Assembly: GCA_012910725.1 (NCBI GenBank)
Contig: WNEG01000087.1
Location: 13,917 to 40,573 of the forward strand
Length of the DNA stretch: 26,657 bases
Reading direction: 5' to 3'
From: Candidatus Ethanoperedens thermophilum
GTDB lineage: Archaea > Halobacteriota > Methanosarcinia > Methanosarcinales > EX4572-44
The position numbers and the translations under genes are program-made. How positions within the stretch are numbered: position 1 is the first letter of the stretch; every line of letters begins with the position of its first letter. Positions 3,627-23,665 of this stretch are shown here, piece by piece. The notes beneath the pieces are model-generated. The model did no database searches, had not been told where the DNA came from, and saw only the letters and a program-made list of their open reading frames with translations.

Positions 3627-3860
3627 TCAGACAACCAGTCTATATATAGTTGCTTCACCTGCTGTTGCACTTTTTCTGGTTACTTTAATCACATTTCCAG
3701 CACCTGCTTTTATTTCTTTTATAACAGGATCAACAGTTTTAATTTTTGGAAGTTGCTCTTTTTCAATGTTGTATTTTTCCAGAACCAGTGCAAGCTCCTC
3801 ATCACTCAATATTTCATGATTGGGAACCGTATCATGATTTAACAAACTAAACTCTTTCAT
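3627..3860 (-). CDS. rpoH: DNA-directed RNA polymerase subunit H (Rpo5), 77 aa
   Basis: HDTVPNHEIL...LPKIKTVDPV...VIKVTRKSATAGEATIYRLVV. The true start is the ATG at 3860; the longer track ORF runs into the IS element. Confidence 0.95.
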   Translation of the reverse strand: MKEFSLLNHDTVPNHEILSDEELALVLEKYNIEKEQLPKIKTVDPVIKEIKAGAGNVIKVTRKSATAGEATIYRLVV

Positions 3861-5296
3861 CGTACTTGTGCAAGGAGACCCAGTCCGCAAGGGCGGGCAG
3901 GAATTGCGCACACCTCCTGTATAACTCCTTTTGCTCTTTTTAGAAGCGTTAACTTCTTGCTGTTTACTGACGCTCCGATTTGATCTCCAGTGATTGTCCG
4001 AAGACCAAAGTATCCGGAACTCCGTAATCCATGTATAAAACATTCGTTGTTGTTGTATTTCACTTTATCATACCTTCTGAATCCTTTAACTTCTTTCACA
4101 GTATTTCTCTTTAACCTTCCTCCTTTGAGGAGGTTGGCTTTGTATAATGATCGGTTCTGTCGCCTTACTTGTTTGCTGATGATTATGCTATCAGATCGCA
4201 TCTGACCATTACCGCCAGCAATAACAAAAGCATCCGTTGCGTGTGATTTCTCTAATCCAAGTTTGATGCGATTGTATTTTGTGGTGTAGCCATACGTCTG
4301 ATTACAATTCAGCAGATCAACGATTCTGCTTCTCACAGCATTCATAAACGCAGTCGCTTTCAGTGTCTTTTCGGCTTTGCTCTGTATTTCAGGGTGACCG
4401 AACTCTCCAGCTGTCTGATTGCCCTTTGCCTGATTGCACTCGTGACAGGCTATCGTCAGATTAGAGACTCTATCCGAACCGCCTCTTGACCGTGGTACGA
4501 TATGTTCAATCTCCAATGGCACATCCTTTTTGCCGCAGTAAGCACATTTCCTGCCCCACTTTTCCAGCAGGTACTCTCTGACTTCGTATCCTTGCAATTC
4601 TCCTTGTTGGTATTCTATTCCACTGATTTCTGGATTCTGCATCTTCTGGGCATCGAAAGAAGCGACCTCGATAACTATTTTTGTAATCGGAAGAATCTTC
4701 TTCAGTTTCTCAATGAGTTTGATGTGGTTATTCAATTTATGTTGAATGTTCGGTGCAAGCCAGCCTTTTGGGATGCCGCGATTGTTGAAACGTGGTTCTC
4801 TGTGCCACAACCTTGCTCTTCGCGTGCGTCTGTATGTTCTTCGTTTTTCGATGAGTCGTTTGATGTCGGATCGCAGGGTTAATTCGCCAGCGATGAGTTC
4901 TCTGTCGGATGTTACTGTGCTGAACCCGACCGTTGTGTATCCAGCGTCTATTCCGAGTGTTGTGTCCTGCGTATTTTCTTCACAATCCCAAAGCAATCTA
5001 ATCGTGAACGGTGTCTGCTGAACGACCTCTGCTCTACCTGCTTCCAGCAGATGTCTTGCTTTTGCAGGTTTGCATGGCATCAGGGGATTTCCATTCTTGT
5101 TAATCACAAATACCAGCGTATCGGCTTTATGCCCTCCCGCTGGTTGGAGTAAGTGCTCCTCGGAGTTGTTGGAAAGTGTTTTTAAACTCACCACACCGTC
5201 CTTGCCCCTCGGGACTTTTAATGATGGGTCACAGTTGCACCGAACTGGAGCAGTATTCGGTGGTGTGTATGTATTTCTTCTATCCAACTTCTGCAT
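3857..5296 (-). CDS. iscB: IscB RNA-guided endonuclease (OMEGA)
   Basis: PLMP (NPLMPC), RuvC-I GIDAG, Arg-rich bridge helix RRTYRRTRRAR, RuvC-II IEVASFD, HNH CAYC..EHIVP..N..CHECN, RuvC-III HATDA. GGAGG precedes the ATG at 5296. Confidence 0.95.
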   Translation of the reverse strand: MQKLDRRNTYTPPNTAPVRCNCDPSLKVPRGKDGVVSLKTLSNNSEEHLLQPAGGHKADTLVFVINKNGNPLMPCKPAKARHLLEAGRAEVVQQTPFTIRLLWDCEENTQDTTLGIDAGYTTVGFSTVTSDRELIAGELTLRSDIKRLIEKRRTYRRTRRARLWHREPRFNNRGIPKGWLAPNIQHKLNNHIKLIEKLKKILPITKIVIEVASFDAQKMQNPEISGIEYQQGELQGYEVREYLLEKWGRKCAYCGKKDVPLEIEHIVPRSRGGSDRVSNLTIACHECNQAKGNQTAGEFGHPEIQSKAEKTLKATAFMNAVRSRIVDLLNCNQTYGYTTKYNRIKLGLEKSHATDAFVIAGGNGQMRSDSIIISKQVRRQNRSLYKANLLKGGRLKRNTVKEVKGFRRYDKVKYNNNECFIHGLRSSGYFGLRTITGDQIGASVNSKKLTLLKRAKGVIQEVCAIPARPCGLGLLAQVR

Positions 5297-5382
5297 TGTT
5301 TTAGGTGCCTCCTGATCAACTAAGGGATTCTTTAGAAGTCCCTTCCTTTAGTCCTGTTAGGGTCAAGGGAGGGGTAGTTGAC
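3861..5382. mobile_element. Non-autonomous IS200/IS605-family element carrying iscB
   Basis: Left end follows TTCAT and has a subterminal hairpin; right end ..GGGAGGGGTAGTTGAC. Removing it rejoins GGAGG..AAGTAAG to the rpoH ATG. No tnpA inside. Confidence 0.9.
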
Positions 5383-5411
5383 CTTACTTAGGTTTCCTCC
5401 TGTAGCAGAAA
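5115..5411 (-). ncRNA. Putative IscB omegaRNA (5' guide from flank 5383-5411, scaffold starting GTCAACTACCCC at 5382; 3' boundary approximate)
   Basis: Canonical GTCAACTACCCC start, GTCAACTA/TAGTTGAT closing stem and internal hairpins upstream of the PLMP codons. Confidence 0.65.
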
Positions 5412-5485
5412 CGGGCTCGATGGGAATTGAACCCACGACCATCTGGTTAAAAGCCAGGTGCTCTGCCGAACTGAGCTACGAGCCC
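5412..5485 (-). tRNA. tRNA-Lys (anticodon UUU), no intron, CCA not encoded
   Basis: GGGCTCG/CGAGCCC acceptor stem, D arm GCTCAGTTCGGCAGAGC, CTTTTAA anticodon loop, GGTTCAATTCC T arm. Confidence 0.95.
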
Positions 5486-5607
5486 ATATAAAGGGCATGC
5501 GCACAAATATGCAACTTGTTATTATATGTTCACACAAGATCTTGAAGATATCACTGAAGATGCATCCACCTTCCAACATCCTAATCTAATTTAAAACTTT
5601 CTCTACA

Positions 5608-6804
5608 CTATGGCGTTTTTGTCCTGGTGTGTTGTTTCCATCCTTCCTCTTCCACCCTTCGCATGATATGCTTTAGAGGAATGCCGGTTGTTTTTGCTAT
5701 TTTCTTGCAGTCATCAAACTCTGCTGACACATCGAGGATGTGCCTGTTCAGGTCTGTTGCAATCTTCACACCTGATGTATATTGTTTGTTGTTTATGAGT
5801 ATCTGTATTCTTTTTATCGTTCTTCTGGCAGTAAGCCGATGTTTTGCCGGTATGATTCGTACACCAAGACTGCCTGTCTCTTCTATGATGGTTTTTGCAA
5901 GGTGTGAGGAGTTTGATGGTTTTGCAATCACCTGCACGATATGCCCACTTCTGCTTTTTTTAGTGGTAGTAGGTATAATGCACACATCCTTTGCACCTTC
6001 TTCAAGCAATCTATCTATGAGGTTTCCTAATACCTCTCCTGTAACATCGTCGATGTTTGTTTCAATAACTTCAATAGCGTCAGGCATGAGATTGTCTTCT
6101 ACTTCAGCAAGAATTGCCCGAAGAAGGTTGGGATGTTCATATTCATGCTTTCCAGCACCATATCCAATCCTGTGTATTGCTATTGGTGGCAGCGATGCAT
6201 GCTGGTTTGTGAAATGAGAAAGCAAGGCAGCTCCTGTTGGAGTTAGTAATTCTCCTTGAATAGATGTTTGCTGGATTACCAGTTGCGTGTTTCTAAGTAT
6301 CTCAAGCGTGGCTGGTGATGGCAGTGGATAGGTACCGTGGTTTATGCTAACAAAGCCAGTACCTGTTGATATTGGATTGCAGTATATATATTTTGGCTTA
6401 AGAATATCTATTGCTGTACATGCTCCTGCGATATCTGCTATGGCATCGTCACACCCCACCTCATGAAAATGAGTCTCTGGTAGATGTCCATGTACCGTGG
6501 ATTCTGCCTTTGCAAGTATTTCATATACCAGGAGAACGTCAGCTTTTATTCCTGGTGTGATGCTCAACTCCTGGATGTGCTGTTTTACTTCTGCGTATGT
6601 GCGGTGTTTCTGGTGTTGTTGAACCACTGTTGTTCTAACTGCACTAATCCCAGATTTTTTCACTGTGGATACATCTACTTCGACACTTGCGGCAGATTCC
6701 ATCACACCCACCACAACTTCAGGGTCTGCACCAAGGTCTATTAAAGCGCTTACAATCATATCCCCGCTTGCACCAGAATAGGGGTCAAATATCAATACAT
6801 CCAT
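5608..6804 (-). CDS. larC: Nickel pincer cofactor biosynthesis protein LarC
   Basis: FDPYSGASGDM N-terminus, HFHEVG, ELLTPTGAALL, IETNIDD, TTKKSRSG. Confidence 0.9.
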   Translation of the reverse strand: MDVLIFDPYSGASGDMIVSALIDLGADPEVVVGVMESAASVEVDVSTVKKSGISAVRTTVVQQHQKHRTYAEVKQHIQELSITPGIKADVLLVYEILAKAESTVHGHLPETHFHEVGCDDAIADIAGACTAIDILKPKYIYCNPISTGTGFVSINHGTYPLPSPATLEILRNTQLVIQQTSIQGELLTPTGAALLSHFTNQHASLPPIAIHRIGYGAGKHEYEHPNLLRAILAEVEDNLMPDAIEVIETNIDDVTGEVLGNLIDRLLEEGAKDVCIIPTTTKKSRSGHIVQVIAKPSNSSHLAKTIIEETGSLGVRIIPAKHRLTARRTIKRIQILINNKQYTSGVKIATDLNRHILDVSAEFDDCKKIAKTTGIPLKHIMRRVEEEGWKQHTRTKTP

Positions 6805-6830
6805 TGGTGTAACTAAGAAAGTGCTCGAAG

Positions 6831-6842
6831 CATATAGTTTTT
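6831..6842 (-). promoter_or_regulatory. Putative BRE/TATA box for larC
   Basis: AAAAACTATATG about 27 nt upstream of the ATG. Confidence 0.4.
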
Positions 6843-7296
6843 ATGGGTACTAAAAAATGGTACATTATCTCCGAAAAACTTAACAACTTTTTTTAGTTTC
6901 ATTTATTTTTCATTCCAACTCAATTTTCCATCAGCTTAGACCACATTCATAATTTCAGCAAAATCTATAAATACATAGGATATCCTGTGAGAAAATGTCA
7001 GTATCAGGTATTTTTATTTTGCTTATGAACAGGTGCTGCAACTGCTATGGTTTGTATTGTACAAAAATGAGGTAATTCGGAGATACTGTTATAATCAAAA
7101 ATGTTATATATAATTAAACATAACCTGATAAAAGGAGGTATGGTAAAATGTCCTACCTTTATTTGGGAAATGACCAATTGGCTGTCAAAGCAGACGAGGA
7201 TTAGGGGAGGTCAGGTCAGGAGATGGGGATAGAAGGAAGGATAGAGGAAAAAGAAGAAGGCAGGCTTGTGGTGGCTGAGGAGGAGCAGACATAAAA

Positions 7297-7605
7297 ATGA
7301 GAAAAATTATAAAGGAAGTCGGGGAACTGGTAAAGAAGGAGTTCGACGTAGAGGAGGTGATTTTATTCGGCTCTTTTGCTTCCGGGAAACCTTCACAGAG
7401 TAGCGACCTTGACATTTTAGTTATTATGGATACCAAATTGAAGCCTTACAAACAGTCAGCTTTAATCCGCATGCAGTTAGATAAAAAATTGGGTGTGAAA
7501 GTTCCCATAGACTTAATCGTAAGAACGCCTCAACAGATTAACGAAAGACTAAATTTAGGCGATTTTTTTATAAAAAATATATTAACCAACGGAGTTCATT
7601 TATGA
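7297..7605 (+). CDS. Minimal nucleotidyltransferase (MNT) antitoxin
   Basis: LFGSFASG..SDLDILV motif; GAGGAGG ribosome-binding site; ATGA overlap with the HEPN gene. Confidence 0.88.
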   Translation: MRKIIKEVGELVKKEFDVEEVILFGSFASGKPSQSSDLDILVIMDTKLKPYKQSALIRMQLDKKLGVKVPIDLIVRTPQQINERLNLGDFFIKNILTNGVHL

Positions 7606-7979
7606 AAGAACTAACAAAAGAATGGATAGACAAAGCAGAGGGTGATTTTATCGTTGTTAATCATGAATATGACGCTAAAACCCCGGTTTATGATGCAATA
7701 TGCTTTCACGCCCAGCAATGTGTAGAGAAATATATGAAAGCAATATTGCAAGAAAATAATATAAAGTTTGAGAAAGTTCACGACCTTGATCTCCTGTTGG
7801 AAAAATGTAAACATTTCGCGCCTCTTTTAGAAGAGCGCAAGGAGGAGTTGATAGAACTTTCCAGTTTTGCAGTAGAGATAAGGTATCCTGGCATAACGGC
7901 TGCGGAAGAAGAGGCAGCAAATTGTATCTCGATAATGGCGGGGACACGGAAGATTATAAAAGAGTATTTTGAAGAATAA
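7602..7979 (+). CDS. HEPN domain protein (toxin partner of MNT)
   Basis: W..KAE.D, FHAQQCVEKYMKA, KVHDL and RYP motifs. Confidence 0.88.
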   Translation: MKELTKEWIDKAEGDFIVVNHEYDAKTPVYDAICFHAQQCVEKYMKAILQENNIKFEKVHDLDLLLEKCKHFAPLLEERKEELIELSSFAVEIRYPGITAAEEEAANCISIMAGTRKIIKEYFEE

Positions 7980-8005
7980 CCGAGATAGGAAAGGAGAATG
8001 AAAAA

Positions 8006-8143
8006 ATGGGATTTGCATTCGTGAAGATGAATCTGAAGAAATCCTTTGAATCTGAGAAATTAAAGGAAGAGCGACTGCTGGTTGGTTCGGGTGCAATTTA
8101 TGCCGTGGTTCTGGAAGAGGATTTTGAACAGGAAACAGGTTAG
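8006..8143 (+). pseudogene. Possible remnant of a retropepsin-like aspartyl protease gene
   Basis: 45-aa ORF MGFAFVKMNL..LLVGSGAIYAVV resembles the LLVD[ST]GA motif with Asp replaced by Gly and an early stop; AGGAG upstream. Confidence 0.35.
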
Positions 8144-8220
8144 GGGTCGTTATGAAATAACCTCAGTAACTTTGAATCCATAAAAGTTTCCAACCACGAG
8201 ATTAATCTTGTGTAATGTTC

Positions 8221-9543
8221 TTAACTATAATTTGCGCCGAAAGCTGCCTGTAGAATTATCAGCGCATCGAGTGACGTCACCTTATTATCGTCATTCATGT
8301 CAGCCCCTTCAACAGCAGGAATTGCCCCAACCGCCATCTGTAGTGCAATAACCGCATCATCTGCCGTGACTGCCCAGTCCAGATTGAGATCACCTTTTGG
8401 GATTGGATCAGAAAATGCATACAGGTAGCCGGAGTCTGAGCCGATGAAGAGGATGCCATCAGAAATCGCTGGCTGTGCCATGTTCCAGTTGCCAGTGTCA
8501 TAAGTCCATTTCAGATCGCCGGTCTCTGCATCGAAACCGTAGACTGTACCCTTGGCATAGTTTGCTGTGGTGTAAACTATGCCGTTTGCAACAACTGGCG
8601 ATGAGTCGCACTTTCCACCCAATGTCTGACTCCATATCTCGCTTCCATCGGTTGCATTAATGCAGTTAATCTTCTTGTCGTTGTCACCGATGTATATCTT
8701 ACCGTTTGATATCGCAGGCGATGAAATCGTACCCTTCAGACTCTGGCTCCAGACTTCGACCCCTGTCATATTAACAGCATAGATCCTGCTCCCTGTTGCA
8801 AAGTACACGATCCCATAATCGATTGCTGGAGTGGTCGACACCGTACCAGTTGTGCTGAAGTTCCAGAGTTCATTGTGTGTTTCGATATCCACACAGTAGA
8901 GCGCATGTCCCGCACCTCCAAAAAATATCTTTCTGTCATAAGCGGCTGGAGAGATGTAATATGCCACTGCTGGAGGATATTCCCCATAGCTTCCTGTTGT
9001 GATATTCCACAGTTCGTTTCCATCAAAATCAAATGCAAAAAATGCACCATTGGATACTGTGTTCACAAAGACCGTGTTCTCATAGATGAGCGGACACGAT
9101 GCGACACCCCAGAATGATGGTTTTGGCTCGATCGTTCTGTTCCAGATTGTAGTTCCATTCAATGCATTCACGCAGTACAGGTCGCCTGTGAGCGAGCCAA
9201 CAAAGAGATGATCTCCTGATATCGCTGGAGTTGAGACTCCACCGCTGCCACCGATTGAATTATTCCAGATGATTTCTCCTGTAGTCTCGTTTAAGCAGTA
9301 CAGTCCCAGTTTTCCTGACCCACCAACACGGTTCGCAACGTACACACGCACATTTGATATGCATGCACCACCCTCGACAAAACAGCCAAGTTCGGTCTCC
9401 CAGAACAGTGTGTCTGTAAGCGGTGCATATCCACTCACATTCCCTGTGCGCTCTGGGTTATGATGGAACTGTAACCAGTCTCCAGATGCTACAGATGTGG
9501 TAAGCGCAAGCAATAAAATTATCGTTAATATTTTTGTGTTCAT
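8221..9543 (-). CDS. Secreted PQQ-like beta-propeller protein with C-terminal dockerin-like domain
   Basis: Signal peptide, repeated SSP/STPA...G..YA.D..TG...W blades, duplicated GDLNLD..../ADMNDD..VTSLDAL repeats. Confidence 0.85.
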   Translation of the reverse strand: MNTKILTIILLLALTTSVASGDWLQFHHNPERTGNVSGYAPLTDTLFWETELGCFVEGGACISNVRVYVANRVGGSGKLGLYCLNETTGEIIWNNSIGGSGGVSTPAISGDHLFVGSLTGDLYCVNALNGTTIWNRTIEPKPSFWGVASCPLIYENTVFVNTVSNGAFFAFDFDGNELWNITTGSYGEYPPAVAYYISPAAYDRKIFFGGAGHALYCVDIETHNELWNFSTTGTVSTTPAIDYGIVYFATGSRIYAVNMTGVEVWSQSLKGTISSPAISNGKIYIGDNDKKINCINATDGSEIWSQTLGGKCDSSPVVANGIVYTTANYAKGTVYGFDAETGDLKWTYDTGNWNMAQPAISDGILFIGSDSGYLYAFSDPIPKGDLNLDWAVTADDAVIALQMAVGAIPAVEGADMNDDNKVTSLDALIILQAAFGANYS

Positions 9544-9635
9544 GTGTGCTGTGTCTTCATTGGTTTCATGTACTATATTATTTGGTATAACTTAAATATA
9601 TTTGTTGTGTCTGACTGAATATGTGGCTCTCTCTA

Positions 9636-9877
9636 TAATTCGAGTTGCAAGCACTTTTTCACTCTTCCGGAGGGTCTGGTCATGGTAAGGAAGATTAAAC
9701 CACAGAGAGCACAGAGGATCACAGAGAGTTGTTATTTTTATCTTTTGCTCCCTCCGTGTCACTCTGTGCCCTCTGTGGTTTTCCGAAACCTTATTTCAAG
9801 AAACTGCACAACTTCGTTGTACAGAAATAACATTTCAGATGCAGGAGACTGAGGTGCGTTTATACTTTCATATACGT
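9636..9877. repeat. About 150-bp dispersed element, copy 1 (with an 89-bp nested insertion)
   Basis: Aligns with 16289-16438 apart from the 89-bp insert and 3 extra nt; module A at 9804-9824. Confidence 0.9.
9702..9790. mobile_element. 89-bp MITE-like hairpin insertion
   Basis: Absent from the 16.3-kb copy; AAACC direct repeats (9697-9701, 9786-9790); 19-bp inverted repeat AACCACAGAG[A/G]GCACAGAG. Confidence 0.7.
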
Positions 9878-10028
9878 TCAAAAATATCAAAAAGTCTCCG
9901 GGGTTTTGGTCACTGCAAAAGCGATAGTACACGAAGACCCGAATATGTTCCTCCACCTGGATTCTGCCTGGCCAAAGGCAGGGATGCAAAAGATAAAATA
10001 CATAGCCAAATATTGACAGATAATATTT

Positions 10029-11729
10029 ATGACTTCGTTCCAGCCAATACTTGTAACCTGTGGTCTGCCTTATGCTAATGGCAAGTGTCATATCGGACAT
10101 CTCCGCACTTATGTACCTGCTGATATCTTTGTGCGATCCCTTCGCAAACAGGGTCAAGAGGTGGTGTTCGTGTGTGGTTCTGATGCACACGGGACGCCTG
10201 TTGTGGTGAATGCTGAAGAACAGGGCACAACTCCAGAAGAACTTGCGAAAAAATACCACGCACACTTTGATGAAATATTCAAAAAGATGGACGTGGAATT
10301 TGACTACTTTGGAAGCACAGATTCACAATCAAACCACAACAGAACTCTTTCAATAGTAAAAGCCCTTATCAAAGCTGGCTACGTGTATTCAATGAAGATT
10401 GACCTTGCTTACTGCCCCAAATGCAGCCGTTTTCTTCCAGATAGATACGTTGAAGGTATATGCCCCTATTGTGGTTCTCATGCTCGTGGTGATGAATGTG
10501 ACCAGGGCTGTGGTAAACACCTTGAACCTGGTGAGATAAAAAATGCTGTGTGCAAGGTTTGTGGAACTAAAGCGGAATACCGCAGTCAGGAGCACTTTTT
10601 CTTTAAGCTCTCCTCTTTCAAAGACTTCCTTCTTGACTATTTACCAAATCTTGGGGGCACCACCAATGCACGCAACTATGCTATTAAATGGGTGGACAAT
10701 GAACTCAGGGATTGGTGCATCACAAGGAACATGGAATGGGGCGTGGCTTTTCCAGATCACGAAGATCTTGTCGTGTACGTGTGGGTGGATGCCCCGATTG
10801 GATATATCTCGTTTACCGAGGAATGGGCAAAAAAGGAAGGTAAAAACTGGGAAGATGTGTGGTGTTCCGATTCGCGCATTATTCATTTCATCGGGCTTGA
10901 CATTGTATACCATCACTGCATCTTCTGGCCTGCAATGTTAAAAGGTGCAGGTTACACCCTCCCGTCCTCAATTGTCGCATCTGGAATGGTGAAGATTGAA
11001 GACCGAAAATTCTCAAAGAGTCGCGGCTATGTACTATGGGTTGATGAGGACTATTTTAGTCATGGCTTCCATCCAGACATCTTGCGATATTATCTTGCAA
11101 GCTACACTTCACACACCAAGGATCTTAATTTTTCATGGGAAATGTTTCAACAGAAAACTAACAGGGAATTGGCAGGCTCGTTTGGAAACTTCCTGTACCG
11201 TACATTATCATTTGCTTATAAAAATTTTGGGGAAGTTCCAGATGCACAAGTAAGTTCTGAAACGATGAACGAAATAAAGAGAGTCATTGGTGCAAATACG
11301 GCAAGTATTAATAATTATGAATTTAAGCAAGCAGCAGATCATGCCATGTTACTTGCTGATTTTGGCAACACGTATTTCCAGTCAAAGGAACCATGGAAAC
11401 TGATAAAAACAGACAGGAATAAATGTGCAGAAGTACTGAAAGATTCTCTACAGATCGCCAAGGCACTTATCATATTATTTGAGCCAGTTATGCCAGGTCT
11501 CATGGAAACTGCATGGAAACAATTGGGTTTTACAAATAATATTCATACTGTATTATATGAGGAAGCATTGATAGAGCTTGAAAGTGGCAAAAAACTGCCA
11601 AAACCAGAGATTATTATTAACAAAATTGAAAATAGCAAAATTGAGGAAATGGAAGCTATGTTAACTGAGAGAATTGGCATAACAGTAGAAAAAGAGACAA
11701 AAGCACAACAAACGAATGAAGCAGTGTGA
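10029..11729 (+). CDS. metG: Methionine--tRNA ligase (short form, no C-terminal OB-fold tRNA-binding domain)
   Basis: LPYANG..HIGH, two Zn knuckles, [15 protein letters not shown]. Confidence 0.96.
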
Positions 11730-11825
11730 TATCGCTGGCAGGGGTGTGGTGGATGTAATGATTGGTATGGCAAAGTCTTTTGAACCATATCATCATTGAA
11801 TTATAGTAGCAAAGGAGGGTATTCC

Positions 11826-13034
11826 ATGAACATCATCAAAAACGTAGAGATTGTGAATTATAAAGGCATCGAGAAGACGCAATTTTCATGCGGTTCTATA
11901 AATATCATAGTAGGTCCGAACAACACAGGAAAATCTTCCATTTTGGAATCAGTCTGGATGGCGGTCGCTTCTTTAAACGACTTTGAAGACAATCTTGAGA
12001 CCCGATTATCAGATATTATCGAAACTGAAAATATCAGACATTTGATACACCAGGGCAAACAGAAATCGACTATAGCATTAGAAATTTTTGAAAATGATAG
12101 GATAATACTGGATTTACTATATTCAAAAAAGAACTATCCTGAAGAAGTTGCTGAGTTTTTTTTAACTTTTATAAATAAAACTCCAAAATTTGATGAGTTT
12201 GAAACTGATTTCCACATGAGCCTATTGGAATTACAGGTTCTTGGAATTAAATTAGATAGGCTATCTGGAAAAGCGGGATTAAAAGAGGAGTTGGATAAGT
12301 TGCTGAAAAGAGTCTCCGAAAACATTGAATCCGTTATCGAAGACTATAGGAGCAGGTTAATCAAATCAGAAAAGGTATTCCTAACCTCAAAAATAAACAA
12401 CAACTTAATCAGCATACGTGCAGTAATGGATGGCTATGCTGATGGAATTTCCATCTTCAACGAAGAGAGCCCCTCCATCCAAAAGATTCCTCTAATTATC
12501 AGTTCCCCTCACATTGATGAGGATGTATCTGAAATTTATAAAAAATTAGTAAATACAAAAAAACTGGCAGAGGTGCTTGAAATCCTGAAAAATAAAATAC
12601 CATATTTTGAAGATATTAGAGAGGTAGATGGTGACTTGCTTGTTTTGCTTGAAAATCTGGATGAACCGTTACCGTTGTCTTTCATGGGAGACGGTTTCAA
12701 AGCTCTTTTAAAGCTATCCTTCATGGCACCTCTGATTAAAAACGGAATCGCCCTCTTTGAAGAGCCCGAAACATCAATGCATCCAGGATATCTTAATATT
12801 TTGGCAAAAGAGATCTTATTAAGCTCTGAATATTCTCAAATTTTTATATCCACTCACAGTTTGGAACTGATAGAGTATCTGCTGGAAAAGGCTGAGAAAT
12901 CTGGCAAGATCGAATCTATAAAGATTTTAAAACTGCGCAGGTTAACAGAAGGCTACATAGAAAGAGAAATCTTCTCAGGAAAAGAGGCGGCTGAAGAGAT
13001 TGAAGTGATTAAAACCGACCTCAGGGGGTTCTAA
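11826..13034 (+). CDS. ABC-type ATPase (AAA_15/AAA_21-like; OLD/PARIS-type)
   Basis: Walker A GPNNTGKS, signature-like SFMGDG, Walker B LFEEPE..HP, H-loop ISTHS. Start set at the ATG at 11826 after GGAGGG. Confidence 0.88.
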   Translation: MNIIKNVEIVNYKGIEKTQFSCGSINIIVGPNNTGKSSILESVWMAVASLNDFEDNLETRLSDIIETENIRHLIHQGKQKSTIALEIFENDRIILDLLYSKKNYPEEVAEFFLTFINKTPKFDEFETDFHMSLLELQVLGIKLDRLSGKAGLKEELDKLLKRVSENIESVIEDYRSRLIKSEKVFLTSKINNNLISIRAVMDGYADGISIFNEESPSIQKIPLIISSPHIDEDVSEIYKKLVNTKKLAEVLEILKNKIPYFEDIREVDGDLLVLLENLDEPLPLSFMGDGFKALLKLSFMAPLIKNGIALFEEPETSMHPGYLNILAKEILLSSEYSQIFISTHSLELIEYLLEKAEKSGKIESIKILKLRRLTEGYIEREIFSGKEAAEEIEVIKTDLRGF

Positions 13035-13035
13035 T

Positions 13036-13850: not shown

Positions 13851-13858
13851 TTTTATAT
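13851..13858 (+). promoter_or_regulatory. Putative TATA box for the mdh-fumarase operon
   Basis: TTTTATAT about 27 nt upstream of the mdh ATG. Confidence 0.4.
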
Positions 13859-13884
13859 TTTTATAACTCCAAGAGGTTTGTTAA

Positions 13885-14814: not shown

Positions 14815-15632
14815 TTTCTCGCGACTTTTTTGTAACAAATATAATAGAGTTGATCATCCAGTCTGAGACAATTCTGCCAGTGGACACAGTGATCGCACTG
14901 GAAAATGCATGGCAGAAGGAGTCAAACACGATAGCAAAGTCACAACTTGCTGCAATACTGAAGAACATAAAAATTGCAAGAGAAAAAAAATATCCTCTCT
15001 GCCAGGACACCGGGATTTTCATATTTAATGTTACAATTGGCAAAAATATTGTTATTAATTTCAATATCAACGATGCCATCTGTGAAGCGCTTCGCTCTGC
15101 AACAGAAACACTACCGCTCAGACCAAATGTGGTACACCCCCTGACAAGAGAGAATTCACTGGACAACACTGGAGATGGACTGCCTGATATTACGTTTAAT
15201 CTCACGGAAGGTAGTGATTTTGAGGTTTACGTGTATCCCAAGGGTGCTGGTTCAGAAAACATGAGCCGCCTTGCTATGCTCAAGCCGTCGCAAAATAGGG
15301 AGATTAAAAGATTCGTCGTTGAAACCGTGTTTACTGCGGGTGGCATGCCATGCCCACCAATAATTGTTGGTGTTGGAATTGGTGGTTCCTTTGACCTTGC
15401 GGCACGTCTTTCCAAGAAAGCAGCACTAAGACCACTTGATGGAATGAATGATTTTGAGCAGGAACTCTGTGACGCTGTGAACACTCTTGGGATCGGGGCG
15501 ATGGGGCTTGGTGGCGACACTACTGCCCTTGCAGTGCATGTGAACACAGCACACTGTCATACAGCATCACTTCCTGTTGCAGTAAATATTCAATGCTGGG
15601 CAAATCGACGAGCATATAAGAAGTTTATATGA
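14805..15632 (+). CDS. Fe-S hydro-lyase (class I fumarate hydratase) alpha subunit
   Basis: [49 protein letters not shown]. Confidence 0.9.
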
Positions 15633-15644
15633 GGGAATGATTGA

Positions 15645-16238
15645 ATGGAACACCGATTAACCACCCCACTTACAAAAGAAGCAATTCTGAAATTAAAAGC
15701 AGGAGATATTTTATATCTCACAGGAAGAGTGTTTACCGCGCGGGATGAAGCACACAAGCACATCCTGAACGCACTTTCACATCACAGGAAGCTGCCTTTT
15801 GACCCTACTGGTGCTGTGATCTATCACTGCGGGCCGCTCTTAAAAAAGACTGAAAACAGCTGGCAGGTGGTGTCAGCCGGACCAACGACCAGTGAAAGAA
15901 TGACACAGATGACACCCGCACTGATGGACAATACCGGGATTCGTGCCATAATCGGAAAAGGCGGAATGAAAGGAGTTGCACCACTATTCAGAGGAAGGTG
16001 CGTATACCTTGCCTACACTGGTGGCTGCGCTGTTCTTGCAGCAGAAGGAATATCAAGAGTGATTAATGTTTACTGGCAAAATCTTGGCATGGCTGAAGCC
16101 GTGTGGGAATTCGAAGTAAGGGACTTCGGACCGCTCATCGTTGGCATCGATTCCTATGGGGTGGATTTGTATGAAAAGGTGCTTGAAAAAGCATCTGAAT
16201 CATTAAAGGCTATTGTAACGGCATCCGACTCTACATAG
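15645..16238 (+). CDS. Fe-S hydro-lyase (class I fumarate hydratase) beta subunit
   Basis: TARDEAH, YHCGP, AGPTTS.RM, IGKGGM, GGCAVL. Confidence 0.9.
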   Translation: MEHRLTTPLTKEAILKLKAGDILYLTGRVFTARDEAHKHILNALSHHRKLPFDPTGAVIYHCGPLLKKTENSWQVVSAGPTTSERMTQMTPALMDNTGIRAIIGKGGMKGVAPLFRGRCVYLAYTGGCAVLAAEGISRVINVYWQNLGMAEAVWEFEVRDFGPLIVGIDSYGVDLYEKVLEKASESLKAIVTASDST

Positions 16239-16288
16239 ATCGCGCTACCTGTTTTATACTACCGCCGCGAAAATTTAAGGCTTTCTGG

Positions 16289-16438
16289 TAATTCGAGTTA
16301 CAAGCACTTTTTCACTCTTCCGGATCTGGTCATGGTAAGGAAGATTAAACCTTATTTCAAGAAACTGCACAACTTCGTTGTACAGAAATAACATTTCAGT
16401 AGCAAGAGAACGAGGTGCGTTTATAATTTCATATACGT
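16289..16438. repeat. About 150-bp dispersed element, copy 2 (uninterrupted)
   Basis: TAATTCGAGTT...GGTCATGGTAAGGAAGATTAAAC CTTATTTCAAGAAA-module A (16365-16385)-AAATAACATTTCAG...TTTCATATACGT. Confidence 0.9.
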
Positions 16439-16703
16439 CGAGAAAATGCCACGATGAACGCAGTCGGTCGGCGCCGGGTCCCACATGGGCAAGGTGTTTT
16501 GTGACCTTGGGTTGAAAGACGTGATGTGGGTGAAGAGTGAAGATAAATGTGCGGTGATTGAAGTTCGTCCGCAAGAACATAACATAGAAATCCCGGTTCG
16601 GACATAACACCAGATAGGCAGGATATGTAAACTCGGGTTCGGATATAGAGCGCATGGGCGATTGCGACATTAGTTTAATAAACATAAACGGAATATGTGG
16701 TAA

Positions 16704-16979
16704 ATGATGACAGTTCGGTTCATTCTCACTGATTACGTAAGCCAGCTATTGGCGCATGCAGTCTACGACAAATTGGATGATGGCACTTATGCCGGACGAA
16801 TTCCAGAATGCAGAGGAGTAGTAGCATTTGGAGCAACCCTACGTGAATGTGAAGATGAACTCCACTCAACCCTCGAAGATTGGATCCTGGTTGGTCTCAA
16901 GCTGGGACATCCTTTACCTATGATTGCTGAAATTAATCTTAACAAGGATATGGCTTATGAGCCCATGGAAGCCCTGTAA
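16704..16979 (+). CDS. HicB-family antitoxin
   Basis: DGTYAGRIPECRGVVAFGATL.EC...L...LEDWI pattern. Confidence 0.8.
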   Translation: MMTVRFILTDYVSQLLAHAVYDKLDDGTYAGRIPECRGVVAFGATLRECEDELHSTLEDWILVGLKLGHPLPMIAEINLNKDMAYEPMEAL

Positions 16980-17187
16980 ACGCCGAGATTTTATCCAGAG
17001 GCTGCGGAAGTTGGGTTTTGATGGACCTTATTCTGGTACACGTCATCAATTTATGATCCATGGGCAGAACCGTATAGCGATCCCTTCCAATGCTGAATAT
17101 TCCGTGCCTCAGCTCCGGATGATGATTCGTGAGGTTGAAGGAATCTTGAATTGTGGTATTACAGTGAATGAGTGGAACAAATTGTGA
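16957..17187 (+). CDS. HicA-family toxin
   Basis: LRKLGF.GPYSGTRHQFM...IAIP motif with the conserved His; start set at the ATG at 16957. Confidence 0.8.
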   Translation: MSPWKPCKRRDFIQRLRKLGFDGPYSGTRHQFMIHGQNRIAIPSNAEYSVPQLRMMIREVEGILNCGITVNEWNKL

Positions 17188-17397
17188 TAGCTAACGTCGC
17201 CCAACATTGTGTACGCGATTCGCACCTCTCGGCGCTCTTCCAACCAATCTTTCTCATCCAAAATCAAATGTAGGTTTTATGTGGTAAAAGTGTATACCTG
17301 TGCTAAAAAAATTATAAAAAAACAGATATCGTTCAGCACATAAGCAAATGCCAACTGGAATGTCTCGGAATTATTCCGATGGTTGAGTGATTGAGAC

Positions 17398-18348
17398 TTA
17401 TAGATTTTTGATTTCGTAAGATTTCAGTATTACCTCGTCATTTAAGTAGCCTGTATGGTATGTTTTTCCTGTTTCAAGGTCATTTACTGTTACTTCTGCA
17501 GGGGCAAAGATGTCTACATCAATCTTATAGAAATCATAATCTGCTTCTTTAAATATTTCGTAGAGCGGTTTACCATAACTGCTTGATGCACTGGAAGTAA
17601 CCTTTTTGAACACACCTTCGTCAAAACCTTTGAGGGTCAGGTTGACAGAACCATAATATATTACACTATCATTTGTTGAACCCATTGCTTTTGTGTTATC
17701 ACTCAGTACTGGTGCAATTGGTGCTACCCCTGCCCCACAGACAATATTATTCGTATCATATCCAAGTTCATTCAACTTATGGACACCAGCTTCTACCACC
17801 CTGCCAGAGACCTGCACAGAACCTACAATCGAAGCAGTTGGAGCTACAATTGCCACAACATTTTCAACATCAATTCCACATTCCCTGGCAATAAATTCCA
17901 TCACCTTTTCATCAGGAAGCTCATTTGATTCAAGAGCAATGACAGCACCGTTAAATTTGTCCTTGTAACCTATGCGTTTATAGATTTTCTTGGGCTTTAA
18001 TGATAATGCACGTGCTGGGCCCGAGCCCATCGCAACATACTTACCCACATTGATCTGCCAGCCAGCCATCTGCGAGGCAAGACACGAAATAGATGGATGA
18101 TCTGTAGTGACGTCGATAAAAGATAGTGCAACATCTCCAAGTTTATGAACACTGATATTGCTTGTGCCAAGACCGCCCATGCACACATCAGTAAACATCA
18201 AACCAGCTTCATAACTTCCAGTGACATTGATGCCACAATCGATGACAGTTGCCTTATTTTTAAGCTTTATCTCTTCTACTTTGAGTTCTTCTGCCCAGTC
18301 TATCATTACTTCAGTAATTTCTAATGCTCTTTCATTTACGCTCAACAT
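17398..18348 (-). CDS. mch: Methenyltetrahydromethanopterin cyclohydrolase
   Basis: [51 protein letters not shown]. Confidence 0.95.
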
Positions 18349-18380
18349 TGGAATCGCCAGAAGGTAAATAACAAAATCAA

Positions 18381-18395
18381 CATATAAGGCTTTTG
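18381..18395 (-). promoter_or_regulatory. Putative BRE/TATA box for mch
   Basis: CAAAAGC-CTTATATG about 33 nt upstream of the ATG. Confidence 0.5.
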
Positions 18396-18445
18396 GGTTT
18401 TGAGCCGAGAACTCACAAATAATGATTTACCCGGAACTGTATCAT

Positions 18446-18600
18446 TTTCAAGAAACTGCACAACTTCGTTGTACAGAAAACAACCAGTAACTCTCGATTG
18501 CACGAGCACTGCACAACTTCGTTGTACAGAAATAACATTCCAGATGCAGGAGAACGATGTGCGTTTGTACTTTCCTATACGTTAAGAAACTGCACACAAC
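18446..18600. repeat. Partial copy 3 of the dispersed element with duplicated hairpin
   Basis: Module A at 18456-18476 and 18509-18529, shared tail ending 18582, then a restart AAGAAACTGCAC. Confidence 0.88.
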
Positions 18601-18733
18601 GTGAGTAGGAATGAATCTTGGTTATGCAGTAATCAAAACATGTGTCTATGATGGTTTTCAAAAACTGGGTAAACTATTTACTATGGGTTCTATTATGTAA
18701 CTATCATTCTACAACATTGATTTAACAGTATTG

Positions 18734-18796
18734 GTCAACAACCCCGGACCTCCACTTCGCAAAGTTTGGGGCATCAACTGGATTGGAGGTCGAGTT
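18734..18796. mobile_element. Possible orphan IS200/IS605 terminus
   Basis: GTCAACAACCCC...GGGGCATC matches the terminal pattern of the IscB and TnpB elements; no associated ORF. Confidence 0.4.
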
Positions 18797-18893
18797 GTAA
18801 TGTACATGTGGATAAAGGTAGAACGGGTGGGTGAGTGTATGTTTGACAGAGGCAATTTGGAATTGTACTACAAAACATGTGCCCTTTAACAAA

Positions 18894-19157
18894 TCAGTCT
18901 TTATACACGCTCTTACGATGTTTGCAGTGAAGCAATATTAGGACATATTCCTGGTCACAAACTTCATACCGTATTCGATAGTTGCCAATCCGGATACGGT
19001 ACTCATTTTCATATCCTTTCAGTTTGATACACCCACGCGGATGTGGATGCTCCTCCAACATCTTGATCTTCTTAATGATTCTGTCATAGACAGCATCCGG
19101 TAGGTCATCTAGTTGCTTCTGTACTGGCTTTGGGATTACAACCCGGTAGTTCATCAA
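18894..19157 (-). CDS. RelE/ParE-family toxin
   Basis: KLKG...YRIRIGNYRIRY...HRKSVY. Confidence 0.88.
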   Translation of the reverse strand: MMNYRVVIPKPVQKQLDDLPDAVYDRIIKKIKMLEEHPHPRGCIKLKGYENEYRIRIGNYRIRYEVCDQEYVLILLHCKHRKSVYKD

Positions 19158-19402
19158 TTTTTCCTGTGCCGCTGAGCGATGTATTCATCGATAGTCACAT
19201 AGTCTCCTGCCTGATATGCAGTGCGAGCTTCTTGAATTTCAGCTTGCACACTCATGTCTTCTTCCCATGTCTTTTCCTCATCATGCGCCATCTGCTCATC
19301 CAGCAGTTCCCAAAGCCGGAATTTGTCCTTCGTATGCAGTTTTGTAATAGATTTAACTAATGATTCGAAAGGTATTAATAATTCTACACTTTCTTGTGCC
19401 AT
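19154..19402 (-). CDS. Putative antitoxin upstream of RelE
   Basis: 82-aa acidic ORF with 4-nt overlap to the relE-like gene. Confidence 0.7.
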   Translation of the reverse strand: MAQESVELLIPFESLVKSITKLHTKDKFRLWELLDEQMAHDEEKTWEEDMSVQAEIQEARTAYQAGDYVTIDEYIAQRHRKN

Positions 19403-19479
19403 AATCTTGCCTTAAAATTGCCATAAAGACTTCTTGACGTACTCCCCGCAATGAAATTGCGAGGAATCTTTAGGAAGAT

Positions 19480-19668
19480 TCATAGAACCCTCAATGGGCT
19501 CGCCATAGCCCAGTTACTGCTACCCGGAGGCTCACAGTTATTATTCTGTTTAATGTTTGCGACACCGTCCACATCTGCATTCATCGACACGCCCTGATCT
19601 GGACATACGTATAATCCTCGGTGTTTTCTACCGTTTTTGTGGATTACTCCGCATAAACAACATGTTTG
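19480..19668 (-). pseudogene. tnpB: 3' remnant of tnpB
   Basis: QTCCLCG..KNGRKHRGLYVC...MNADVDGVANI (Zn finger + RuvC-III), with no start codon. Confidence 0.8.
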
Positions 19669-19674
19669 TTATAC

Positions 19675-19690
19675 TATATAAGCATTTTTG
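19675..19690 (-). promoter_or_regulatory. BRE/TATA-like motif inside the mini-element
   Basis: CAAAAATG-CTTATATA pointing into the tnpB remnant and right end. Confidence 0.5.
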
Positions 19691-19780
19691 CACGTCTGGA
19701 GAGGCGGGGGCGGGCTATCCCCGCTCTAAAGAGCGAGGCTTGCGCTGCCCCCTGCGCCCCCAATACTGTCAACAAGTTTA

Positions 19781-20434
19781 TTAATTAAGATCGACTCGCT
19801 CACCTGTTGCCATGTACACGACGCTCTCACAGATGTTGGTGATGTGATCACCACTGCGTTCAAGGTAGCGTGCTGCAAAGGTCAGGTGTGATGCGTTTTT
19901 TATCTTTGTTGGATCTTCTATCATATAAGTGATAAGTTCCCGGCGTACCTGATCAAAGAGTGCATCAATTTCATCATCTCTTCTTGCAGTTTGTTTTGCA
20001 AGTTCACTATCGCCACTCTCGAATGCTTGCATGACAGAAGTGAGCATTTCACCACAGATATCTGCCATTCTTGGCAAATCTACCAGTGGTTTTATGTGTG
20101 GTTGTTTGATGGTGGATCTGGTTATCCATGCTATTTCAAGGGCAAGATCTCCTATGCGCTCAAGGTCGATAATGATTTTAATGATTGAGCCTATCAGGCG
20201 GAGGTCCTTTGCCATCGGCTGCTGCAATGCAAGGAGGGCAAAGCACGTATCTTCAATCGTTGCATAGAGGTTGTCAATCTCATCGTCTGAGTTAATCACC
20301 TCACCAGCTTCATCAAGATTCTGGTGTTTCAGTGATGCAATTGCTTTTTTGATATTATCTCCTGCCATGTTGCCCATCCTGATCGTATCTTCTTTCAGTT
20401 TTCGCAGTTGTTGGTGATATTTAGTCCGTGTCAT
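19781..20434 (-). CDS. phoU: Phosphate signalling complex protein PhoU
   Basis: QQPMAKDLR, DLERIGD, DDEID, YLERSGDH.TNICE. Start moved to the ATG at 20434, outside the repeat. Confidence 0.95.
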   Translation of the reverse strand: MTRTKYHQQLRKLKEDTIRMGNMAGDNIKKAIASLKHQNLDEAGEVINSDDEIDNLYATIEDTCFALLALQQPMAKDLRLIGSIIKIIIDLERIGDLALEIAWITRSTIKQPHIKPLVDLPRMADICGEMLTSVMQAFESGDSELAKQTARRDDEIDALFDQVRRELITYMIEDPTKIKNASHLTFAARYLERSGDHITNICESVVYMATGERVDLN

Positions 20435-20449
20435 AAGTCTTATCCACAC

Positions 20450-20625
20450 CTGCACAACTTCGTTGTGCAGAACCACACACTCCGTGTGCGGAACTGCATA
20501 CTGCGTATGCAGAAATTAATTCTTGAATAATTCTTGATTGCGAGAAGCACTGCATACTGCGTATGCAGAAATTAATTCTTGAATAATTCTTGATTGCGTT
20601 AGCAATCAAGTGCAGAGCAATCAAG
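20450..20625. repeat. Mosaic palindromic repeat cluster between pstB and phoU
   Basis: A at 20450-20470, C at 20473-20491, B at 20494-20512 and 20550-20568 (56-bp duplication), D at 20589-20610. Confidence 0.92.
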
Positions 20626-20635
20626 ATGTCATGCG

Positions 20636-21400
20636 TTATCCAAACCTTCCTGTTATGTAGTCTTCTGTACTTTTCTCTTTCGGTTTTTTAAAGAGTTTTT
20701 TTGTCTCATCGAATTCTACCAGCTCTCCGTGAAGGAAGAAGGCTGTGTAGTCTGATACCCTTGCTGCCTGCTGCATGTTATGGGTAACTATGATAATGGT
20801 GTAGTGTTCTTTAAGTTTTACCATGAGGTCTTCGATCTTGCTTGTTGAGATTGGATCAAGGGCACTGCATGGTTCATCGAGGAGTATGATGTCTGGCTGC
20901 ACTGCGAGAGTTCTCGCGATGCACAATCGCTGCTGCTGTCCCCCACTCAAGCTTAATGCCGAGCGGTTGATTCGATCACTGACTTCATCCCACAAAGCTG
21001 CATTTTTTAAGCTTTCTTCAACGATTTGTACAAGTCGCTGCTTGTTTTTTTCACCATGTATTCGTGGACCGTATGCGACGTTTTCAAATATCGATGATGG
21101 GAAGGGGTTTGGTTTCTGAAATACCATGCCGACCTTTTTTCGAAGACTCACCACATCTATATCTTTGTGGTTGATATTTTCATGGTCTAGCAGCATTTCA
21201 CCCTCTGTTCTTACCGTTGGTATCAGGTCATTCATTCGGTTAATACATCGTATGAAGCTGGTTTTTCCGCAGCCTGAAGGCCCTATGAGCGCTGTGATTT
21301 TCCTCCTTGGTATATTCAGGTTGATGTTTTTTAGAGCTTGATTGTCTGCATACCACAGATTCAGGTTTTTAACTGATATTTCGATTTCTTCATGGTCCAT
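20636..21400 (-). CDS. pstB: Phosphate ABC transporter ATP-binding protein
   Basis: [41 protein letters not shown]. Confidence 0.97.
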
Positions 21401-21454
21401 ACGTAGGTCCTCCTTTTGCTCTATCTATATCTATAATTTACGATTTGTTTTTTA

Positions 21455-22312
21455 TTACCCTTGCAGTTTTTTCTGATATTTCCTGCGAAGGATGATTGCT
21501 GCTGCATTCATTGTTAGCAGAACCAAAAGAAGCACGATAATTGCTGCCGATGCAATATTTGCAAATTCTGGTTGAGGTTTACTGATCCAGTTAAATATCT
21601 GTATTGGCATGGCTGTAAAAGGATCAAGGGGCGTTTGCGGGGTGAAGGCTACAAACGTGAGAGCGCCTATCATTATCAATGGTGCGGTCTCTCCGATAGC
21701 TCTTGAAAGCGCAAGGATGTTTCCTGTAAGTATCCATGGCATAGCTGAAGGCAGCACCTGGTACCTGATAGTCTGCCACTTGCTCGCCCCAAGTCCGTAG
21801 GATGCTTCTCGAAGTGATTTTGGTACTGCGCCAAGAGCTTCTTTTGTGGAGATGATAATTATTGGGAGTACCAATAACGAGAGTGTAAGTGCACCTGCTA
21901 TCAGACTTTTTCCAAGTGATAGTCCTCGAACAAAAAGAGCAAGACCAAGGATGCCATAAACGACACTCGGAACGCCAGCCAGATTGAAGATATTAATTTC
22001 TATAATCTTTGTGAGACGTGATCTTGGTGCATATTCCTCCAGGTATATTGCTGCACTCACCCCCATAGGCAGTGCAAGAGCAGCGGTTAGCAATATGAGC
22101 CAGATTGAACCCCAGAGTGCTGATTTTATGCCTGCCCTTTCTGGAAAGCGAGATGGATAGCTGCAAATAAAATCCCAGCTTAACCAGGAAAATCCTTTTA
22201 CAAATATATCAAATAACAGTAAAGCAAGCAGCACGATGCCAGTGATTGTAGAGGCAAAGCAGATAACTGCAAAAAGTTGGTCTTTTCTTTGACGTTTCTG
22301 TTGCAGGTTCAT
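21455..22312 (-). CDS. pstA: Phosphate ABC transporter permease PstA
   Basis: [38 protein letters not shown]. Confidence 0.95.
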
Positions 22313-23665
22313 CCTACTTGCGCAAGGAGACCCCGTCCGAAAGGACGGGGAGGAATTGCGCCCTCCATAGAGCTTACATAGTTTCGTGACATAGTTAACA
22401 TCGGTGAGACCTTGAAGACGATACTAATCAACTGTTTGCCATTAACCAGCAAGAAACAGCAGATACGCAATAGCTTCTTTAAAGAATATCTTCGCGTTCT
22501 GAATGCCACACTTAAATCATTGCCTGATGCCAAATCTTCAAACGATTTGCACCACCTAACATACTTCAACATTCGTGAAACCTCCTTTTTGCCTTCTGAT
22601 ATTGTTCAAGAAGCCCGAAAAGATGTGTGGGCTAAACGCAAGACTGTTAATAATAGATTCAAACGGTGTTCTATCCGACTTAACAAGAGATGGTTCAGGT
22701 TTTTTACCACTGATCGAGCAACCCCCAGCTTCAAGATCACCTACGCTCCACACAAAACTTTTACGATACCCATAGCAATTGATGGTGGTTATGATCGATT
22801 CACCTGTTTTCTCGATGATGGCTGGGTTATCAAAACTATATCCCTTCTCGACAGTAAAATTGCTGTCGCCATCGACAAAGATTTCGAAGTTCCTGCTAAC
22901 ATCAGCAGGTATGTCGTAGGAGTTGATGTTGGTTCGACCACTCTCGCAGCGATAACCATTTTCGACACCCTCGAAAACCGTGTTGTCAAACAACTCTACT
23001 TTGGTAGAGATGTTGCCATCAGGCAACGCAGGATTGCGGATCAGCGTGCTTTGCTTCGGAGCAATGTCGACAAAGGTTCTGATCAAGCGAAGAAGAGTCT
23101 TAAACGGCTTGCTAACAAACAATTCAACTTTGTCAAGACCCGTAGTGGTCAAATTGCTAAAGAAATCGTGGAACTCGCGGTTAAACATAGTGCATCCATT
23201 GCCATTGAGAAACTTACTATTAGAAGCAGGAAACACCAATTTAACAAGACGGCTAACCGAAAGATAAACACGATTCCGTATGCACAGCTCAGAGACTTTC
23301 TTATATCGAACTGTGCCGAGTACGGAGTGTATCTTGATCAAGTTGATCCTTACCACACCTCGAAGTGGTGTCCTCACTGCGGTGCAGTGAATAATGGACA
23401 TGCCACATCTAACTACGCTTTGTATAGATGCAAAGAGTGTGGTCTGGTTGTTAATAGCGACAGAAATGCGTCCCTCGTGGTTGCCATCAAATCGGCTCTG
23501 GTGCGGGAAAATTCTCAAGGTCTCACCAACCTTTTTTCCCAGTTTACCAGAGCTAAAGTCCCTGTAAACGGGCTTTTTCGTCCAGATGATAAGTTTTTGA
23601 GTTGTGCTGTGCATGATATCAGTCCTTTGATGGAAAGCCCCTTCCGATAGGGAGGGGTAGTTTAC
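22313..23665 (+). mobile_element. Non-autonomous IS200/IS605 (IS1341-type) element carrying tnpB
   Basis: Follows TTCAT; left-end hairpin CCCCGTCC-GAAA-GGACGGGG; right end ..GGGAGGGGTAGTTTAC. Removing it restores a TAATG pstC/pstA overlap. Confidence 0.92.
22412..23650 (+). CDS. tnpB: TnpB RNA-guided endonuclease
   Basis: RuvC-I GVDVG, RuvC-II IAIEKL, Zn finger CPHC/CKEC, RuvC-III SDRNA; TTG start after GGTGA. Confidence 0.93.

Follow-up and report, generated by a model that had tools for sequence, protein, structure and literature searches.

Shared ends and a shared TTCAT target in an IscB element and a TnpB-only element of the archaeon Candidatus Ethanoperedens thermophilum

The stretch of DNA considered here, referred to as the window, comprises 26,657 nucleotides (nt) of contig WNEG01000087.1 of Candidatus Ethanoperedens thermophilum (assembly GCA_012910725.1, positions 13,917-40,573 of the forward strand). 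Two insertions are found in it. One (3861-5382) is a non-autonomous element of the IS200/IS605 type, which carries iscB on the minus strand together with a HEARO/omega RNA, and the other (22313-23665), read on the plus strand, has TnpB as its sole cargo. The two share their left and right ends, lie directly after the same pentamer, TTCAT, and carry their nuclease genes in opposite orientations relative to those ends. They are very probably two non-autonomous members of a single IS200/IS605 lineage, an IscB element of the ISC type and a TnpB-only element of the IS605B/IS1341 type, built on a common chassis. Their parts are as follows, with TAM standing for target-adjacent motif and ORF for open reading frame.

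3856-3860, plus strand: TTCAT, target and predicted TAM of the IscB element; read as ATGAA on the other strand, it includes the rpoH ATG (3860-3858) and the iscB stop codon TGA (3859-3857)
3861-3909, plus strand: left end of the IscB element, with an outer stem and an inner hairpin; the hairpin has several mismatches in the window copy
3857-5296, minus strand: iscB ORF, 479 amino acids (aa), with RRXRR/PLMP-RuvC and HNH; it crosses the left end and terminates within the target motif
5149-5382, minus strand: IscB omega RNA scaffold, Rfam HEARO RF02033, full length (model positions 1-211)
5341-5382, plus strand: right end of the IscB element, where TAGTTGAC comes after a CCCTTCC...GGGAGGGG hairpin (loop of 20 nt)
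5383-5410, minus strand: flank running from the right end to tRNA-Lys, which was once the leader of rpoH (with GGAGG) and is the predicted source of the IscB 5' guide
22308-22312, plus strand: TTCAT, target and predicted TAM of the TnpB element; its complement includes the start codon of the downstream ABC permease gene
22313-22361, plus strand: left end of the TnpB element, with outer stem GCGCAA/TTGCGC and a perfect inner hairpin, CCCCGTCC-GAAA-GGACGGGG
22412-23650, plus strand: tnpB ORF, 412 aa, with a TTG start after GGTGA, RuvC D-E-D motifs and a zinc ribbon
23480-23665, plus strand: probable TnpB omega RNA scaffold, made up of the tnpB 3' end (residues 357-412) and the right end; the segment retained by TnpB-type mini elements
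23638-23665, plus strand: right end of the TnpB element, a CCCCTTCC-GATA-GGGAGGGG hairpin, then TAGTTTAC
23666-23681, plus strand: flank, by the TnpB paradigm the predicted source of the 3' guide in the TnpB omega RNA

Of 49 left-end positions (3861-3909 and 22313-22361), 43 carry the same base in both elements, and beyond them the two sequences diverge at once. At the right ends, 14 identical bases are followed by one G/T difference and then AC, giving GGGAGGGGTAGTT(G/T)AC in both elements, and this block is preceded by a CCC(C)TTCC arm across a loop that is longer in the IscB element (20 nt) than in the TnpB element (4 nt). Both sites are empty in three same-genus genomes with flanks 91-95% identical, where the sequence is ...TTCAT|CTTACTTAGG... 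at rpoH and ...GGTTCAT|TACTCGTATACC... at the permease gene, each with one TTCAT and no target duplication. The single TTCAT in these orthologous sites fixes the boundaries of both elements to the base, and the empty sites show that both insertions postdate the divergence of these species. Insertion without duplication directly 3' of a specific short motif is a trait of the IS200/IS605 group, as are imperfect subterminal hairpins at both ends without terminal inverted repeats. The hairpins here are CCCCGTCC-loop-GGGCGGGG on the left and CCCCTTCC-loop-GGGAGGGG on the right, with a T.G mismatch at the same stem position in both. Neither the ORF list nor domain matches revealed a tnpA or any other credible gene within either window element. 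A preliminary description, drawn from the letters of the window, had already reported the common ends, the TTCAT target, the opposite gene orientation and the lack of tnpA, and all four observations hold.

The two insertions belong to a larger family. Pattern scans of the genome, an assembly of 1.25 Mb in 114 contigs that is 61% complete and encodes McrA, turned up no fewer than 13 left ends behind a TTCAT, along with some 17 right ends, and the majority of the copies are mini elements of 200-350 bp. IscB-type copies combine a long-loop right end with TTGAC and TnpB-type copies a short-loop right end with TTTAC, while right ends of an intermediate kind (short loop with TTGAC) are found on contigs C47, C20 and C99. 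The omega RNA is kept in IscB-type mini elements; five HEARO matches in the genome lie above threshold and two are weaker. TnpB-type mini elements (contigs C110 and C69) keep the last ~55 tnpB codons and the right end, as would be expected for a guide-RNA scaffold. The ends of two contigs hold the parts of a second iscB copy, whose protein is ~85% identical. Copies with other targets or other boundaries would have told against the preliminary description, and the genome's other copies show the same target and the same boundaries.

A chance or low-complexity likeness between the ends of unrelated loci has next to no probability. Nothing but the shortness of the common blocks speaks for it, and it is rejected on the left-end identity, with both left ends directly after the same pentamer, on the intermediate subtypes, and on the control pattern: the left-end pattern has 10 matches in the genome and none with the pattern reversed (nor any in 40 genomes of the same order).

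Outside this genome the family is sparse. A 16-base left-end pattern run across wider genome contigs gave chance hits in unrelated bacteria only, none of which extends to a full left end, and a metagenome scan with a 30-base-specified pattern gave one further left-end copy, again after TTCAT. A related left end occurs in only four of 400 sampled genomes of the phylum, at one or two copies each. The loci concerned in these four genomes (L146-L149, L177-L181) carry related TnpB elements and one mini element, all after TTCAT, and their left hairpin has undergone compensatory change to CCCCGGCC-TTCA-GGCCGGGG. The metagenome copy lies on contig Ga0136651_10056196 (1-600; L145) and adjoins short tandem CTTACACC-like repeats, which might be plasmid or virus iterons. 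DNA related to small parts of the window is also present in marine sediment, cold-seep and vent metagenomes.

The nuclease genes and the IscB guide RNA are well defined. The iscB product matches RRXRR (2.8e-64) and HNH (1.5e-13), which identifies the ORF at 3857-5296 on the minus strand as IscB. Aligned to the solved structures of TbaIscB (2.3e-55) and OgeuIscB (1.6e-42), the protein has readable GIDAG, IEV, EIEH and HATD motifs, so that the motifs of both RuvC and HNH are present. HEARO RF02033 scores 106.3 bits at 5149-5382 on the minus strand (gathering score 83). This RNA lies directly upstream of iscB on the same strand, and its first base is the last base of the IscB element, at the right-end boundary. 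The Rfam HEARO consensus starts GUCAacuaCCCC, the complement of ...GGGGTAGTTGAC, which indicates that this right-end terminus is general to IscB elements. In the other element, a match to the Cas12f1-like TNB domain (2.7e-16) identifies the ORF at 22412-23650 on the plus strand as TnpB; its product also matches solved structures of TnpB and Cas12f, and GVDVG, IEKL, CPHCG..CKECG and SDRNAS motifs can be read in it.

The right-end flank at the rpoH site (5383-5389) starts CTTACTT, the first seven bases of the consensus left end. The same bases begin the flank in the three same-genus empty sites (L017-L019), and this may reflect chance or an unknown site preference.

IscB uses a 5' guide and a 3' TAM, while TnpB uses a 5' TAM and a 3' guide. 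The opposite orientation of the two genes on common ends would thus allow both nucleases to work from the same places, as the preliminary description had proposed. Both elements would be carried on a single-strand 'peel and paste' chassis, with a two-tier-stem left end placed directly 3' of TTCAT and a right end formed by a CCCCTTCC/GGGAGGGG-type hairpin followed by TAGTT(G/T)AC, and no target duplication. A Y1 TnpA encoded elsewhere in the genome would move both. Excision would leave a donor joint made of TTCAT and the right-end flank, which TnpB is predicted to read with TTCAT as 5' TAM and, as 3' guide, a copy of the flank from 23666 on. On the other strand, IscB would read the same kind of joint with an omega RNA that begins at the right end, a 5' guide from the flank (5383 onward) and ATGAA as 3' TAM. 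Either nuclease could then cut the emptied site and cause its own element to be copied back, a form of homing. This assignment of guides and TAMs rests on the HEARO boundary at the right end and agrees with the report that the scaffold of the IscB omega RNA derives from the transposon right end, with the 5' guide outside the element (Meers 2023, bioRxiv 10.1101/2023.03.14.532601; Nature 2023).

The preliminary description had also supposed that one TnpA serves both cargoes in trans, and had called for a genome search for the ends together with a copy bearing tnpA. The ends were found in number, as described above; the tnpA-bearing copy of the TTCAT family was not, and the search led only to a candidate helper. 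Five full-length Y1 tnpA genes (Y1_Tnp) are present in the genome. On contig C43 (24600-26305) lies an autonomous tnpA+tnpB IS605 element with the target TTTAA, whose bounds, from TTTAA|CTCTTTC... to ...GGGAGGGGTAGTTCAC|, are given by an empty site in genome G003. Its left end follows the plan of the TTCAT family (seven bases, outer stem, five bases, hairpin), and its hairpins (CCCCTTCC/GGGAGGGG) are those of the TTCAT-family right end, T.G mismatch included. The five bases 5' of the hairpin are GGAGA in the TTCAT family and GAAGT in the C43 element. These two differences are Watson-Crick-compatible with the two differences between the targets, TTCAT and TTTAA. Such co-variation of pre-hairpin bases and target is expected under the rule worked out for IS608, in which the DNA guide of the element, and not the protein, reads the target (literature quoted via Meers 2023). 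By analogy, this rule would apply to the C43 and TTCAT families, and the C43 element, the best candidate in the genome, is a plausible helper in trans of the TTCAT family.

The insertion site of the C43 element is a structured repeat with palindromes of the types cttgattacttcgtaatcaag and gtacaacgaagttgtgcag. This repeat also stands beside a tnpA element on contig C57 and in the empty G003 site.

It could be argued that the ends are alike through common descent only, and that the elements are served today by different TnpAs or by none, so that no chassis is mobilised in common. The right ends do differ in the loop (20 versus 4 nt) and in the cleavage-proximal base (G versus T), no cognate tnpA was found in the genome, and the divergence of the two iscB copies means that the family is not very young. 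However, the two elements agree in stems, T.G mismatch, spacing and target; in IS608 and in the ISGst elements of Geobacillus stearothermophilus the element's DNA guide decides the target, and one TnpA excises diverged families; and both window insertions are missing from the three same-genus genomes. Separate service of the two elements is therefore considered improbable, and the shared, co-mobilised chassis is retained as the better account.

Several findings nevertheless weigh against that account. No tnpA was found inside any TTCAT-family copy in the 61%-complete assembly, and the C43 helper remains a candidate only. No Rfam family matches the TnpB 3' region, even at a permissive threshold. 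A search of sequencing runs with the window stretch returned only DNA metagenomes, covering small parts of it, and no RNA run. Finally, the left end of the window IscB copy (3861-3909) folds no better than shuffled sequence (z = +0.66), its hairpin being mismatched at the closing pair and at one inner pair, and this copy may be a poor TnpA substrate and no longer mobile. It has indeed a real, if minor, chance of being an immobilised insertion that the host tolerates or has partly domesticated. In addition to the weak hairpin, its position between the leader and the ATG of rpoH, a probably essential gene, would fit such a fate, as would the iscB frame ending at a TGA that overlaps the rpoH ATG. 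Against this, neither the iscB ORF nor the omega RNA is damaged, congeners lack the insertion, which makes it recent, and one weakly folding hairpin is no proof of inactivity.

The position of the insertions relative to host genes deserves separate consideration. Three host features adjoin the window elements.

3627-3860, minus strand: rpoH (RNA polymerase subunit Rpb5/H), 77 aa; its ATG adjoins the left end of the IscB element
5411-5486, minus strand: tRNA-Lys(UUU), 28 nt upstream of the omega RNA scaffold and on the same strand
21455-22312, minus strand: ABC transporter permease gene (PstA-like), parted from its upstream partner (23665-24588) by the TnpB element

Among 13 TTCAT junctions in the genome, one runs off its contig and 12 can be assessed. 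At 11 of these 12, the ATG of ATGAA opens an ORF of 77-475 aa on the opposite strand, some of the genes concerned are probably essential, and nine of the 11 ORFs have Pfam support: RpoH, a PstA-like permease, RtcB, PGM/PMM (GlmM-like), RNase P p29, a DMRL-synthase-like protein, Cbf5, a GH57 enzyme and a DUF11 secreted protein. The match begins within the first seven residues for PGM/PMM, Rpp29, DMRL, Cbf5, GH57 and RpoH, which indicates that these ATGs are true starts. Pfam coverage of the N-terminus replaced a crude start rule (at most 25 open codons upstream), which under-called true starts such as that of rpoH. Across the genome, ATGAA opens an ORF of at least 70 aa at just 20% of sites, ~7.5% look like starts, and ~860 ATGAA sites lie outside long ORFs. 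The probability of at least 11 in 12 is 2e-7 under the genome-wide null and 1e-5 if only non-disruptive sites are allowed. In the reconstructed empty sites, the host leader, often with GGAGG-like motifs, directly preceded the gene and is now on the far side of the element. Wherever a copy can be read, no stop codon interrupts the left end in the frame closed by the TGA of ATGAA. In the window, the iscB stop overlaps the rpoH start as ATGA, and mini elements with differing internal deletions on contigs C84/C40, C80 and C54 all keep an ORF that starts at the iscB ATG and closes with a TGA overlapping the start codon of the host gene, though they differ by in-frame changes or read through a variant end in another frame.

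Folding of the gene strand of the left end adds a further point. The outer stem (GCGCAA/UUGCGC) and the hairpin form in a consensus mini element (L012:1-90, minus strand) and in the TnpB element (22313-22375, minus strand), with a conserved GGAGG just 5' of the outer stem and the AUG 7 nt 3' of it, so that the modelled fold brings GGAGG beside the AUG. The left-end stem could in this way create a split ribosome-binding site. The window IscB copy does not fold in this way. The idea of a leaderless promoter within the left end was dropped, since the 30 bases that precede the host ATG are G+C-rich and contain no TATA-like box.

These observations permit the tentative proposal, rather less probable than its opposite, that the TTCAT family, whose target ATGAA consists of a start codon and AA, has adapted to insertion precisely at the start codons of host genes, with the host leader transcribing the guide and the host gene remaining translated through coupling. 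Transcription from the host promoter and leader would yield the IscB guide and scaffold, and an element ORF ending at a TGA that overlaps the host ATG would permit termination and reinitiation, the ORF being iscB in full copies and a frame-preserving remnant in mini elements. A guide transcribed from the host would fit the orientation bias reported by Meers 2023. At the rpoH site, transcription and 3' processing of the upstream tRNA-Lys could also serve as a delivery route for the IscB guide. The proposal is weakened in several ways. Copies of a subtype share ancestry, and several mini elements contain runs of N. The TnpB relatives found in other genomes do not keep the frame across the left end open. 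In the genomes with related elements, two of four sites are at clear gene starts (TrmB-like and Mre11-like), in what is a small sample. Codons and start-codon positions receive no mention in the survey of such elements by Kapitonov, Makarova and Koonin (2016, J Bacteriol 198:797; PMC4810608), and a literature search for start-codon docking gave nothing relevant, which is no proof of novelty. If borne out, start-codon docking would be of greater interest than the shared ends: it would show an RNA-guided transposon living inside the expression signals of essential genes without killing its host, and how such an element obtains an IscB guide that has to be transcribed from outside.

A mini element of another IS200/IS605 family, separate from the TTCAT family, lies at 19411-19772 of the window; the tnpA+tnpB element on contig C57 has a left end that matches the end of this mini element.

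With regard to known systems, the preliminary description was correct in its observation and sound in its reading, yet the essentials had already been published (Kapitonov 2016; Meers 2023). The locus is a further archaeal case of a known arrangement, and the current understanding of these elements is unchanged by it. What it offers is a clean, base-resolved archaeal example of Cas9- and Cas12-ancestor nucleases on the same ends, predicted to read the same donor joint on opposite strands. Together with the empty sites, the mini elements and the candidate helper, it is a possible compact test system with predicted TAMs.

The closest precedent is provided by the IscB and TnpB-only IS605B transposons that share termini and the same target, including N|ATGA, with tnpB always antisense to iscB across the families examined and an archaeal example in Methanosarcina lacustris (Kapitonov 2016). 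The window elements are a shared-termini pair in this sense, with common termini, an antisense tnpB and the same target site. As in the earlier ISC/IS605B pairs, the two are non-autonomous and occur in one genome, share terminal sequences and subterminal hairpins, and insert at the same target without duplication with tnpB opposite to iscB. The N|ATGA class is the |ATGAA of the TTCAT family read on the iscB strand. Unlike those pairs, however, the present elements are found in an Mcr-encoding archaeon known only from a metagenome bin, their end sequences are different and their target is the 5-nt TTCAT. Moreover, both ends are common here, whereas a common 3' terminus was reported in the two worked examples of Kapitonov 2016.

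A second precedent is found in Geobacillus stearothermophilus, where five families with TnpB or IscB cargo (ISGst1-5) have highly similar left and right ends and are all excised by one TnpA (Meers 2023). The mini elements of that system, named PATEs, carry omega RNAs, and the nucleases cut the donor joint. Apart from the archaeal host and the different TAMs, the distinction is that the activities were measured for the ISGst elements, whereas here they are inferred; in addition, the candidate helper has a target of its own, TTTAA, and an autonomous TTCAT copy was not found in the assembly. With IS608 and ISDra2, finally, the window elements have in common insertion 3' of a motif of 4-5 nt, imperfect subterminal hairpins at both ends, bases 5' of the left hairpin that co-vary with the target, and the lack of inverted repeats and of target duplication. 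Unlike IS608 and ISDra2, they carry no tnpA of their own and surround the left-end hairpin with an extra outer stem, GCGCAA/TTGCGC.

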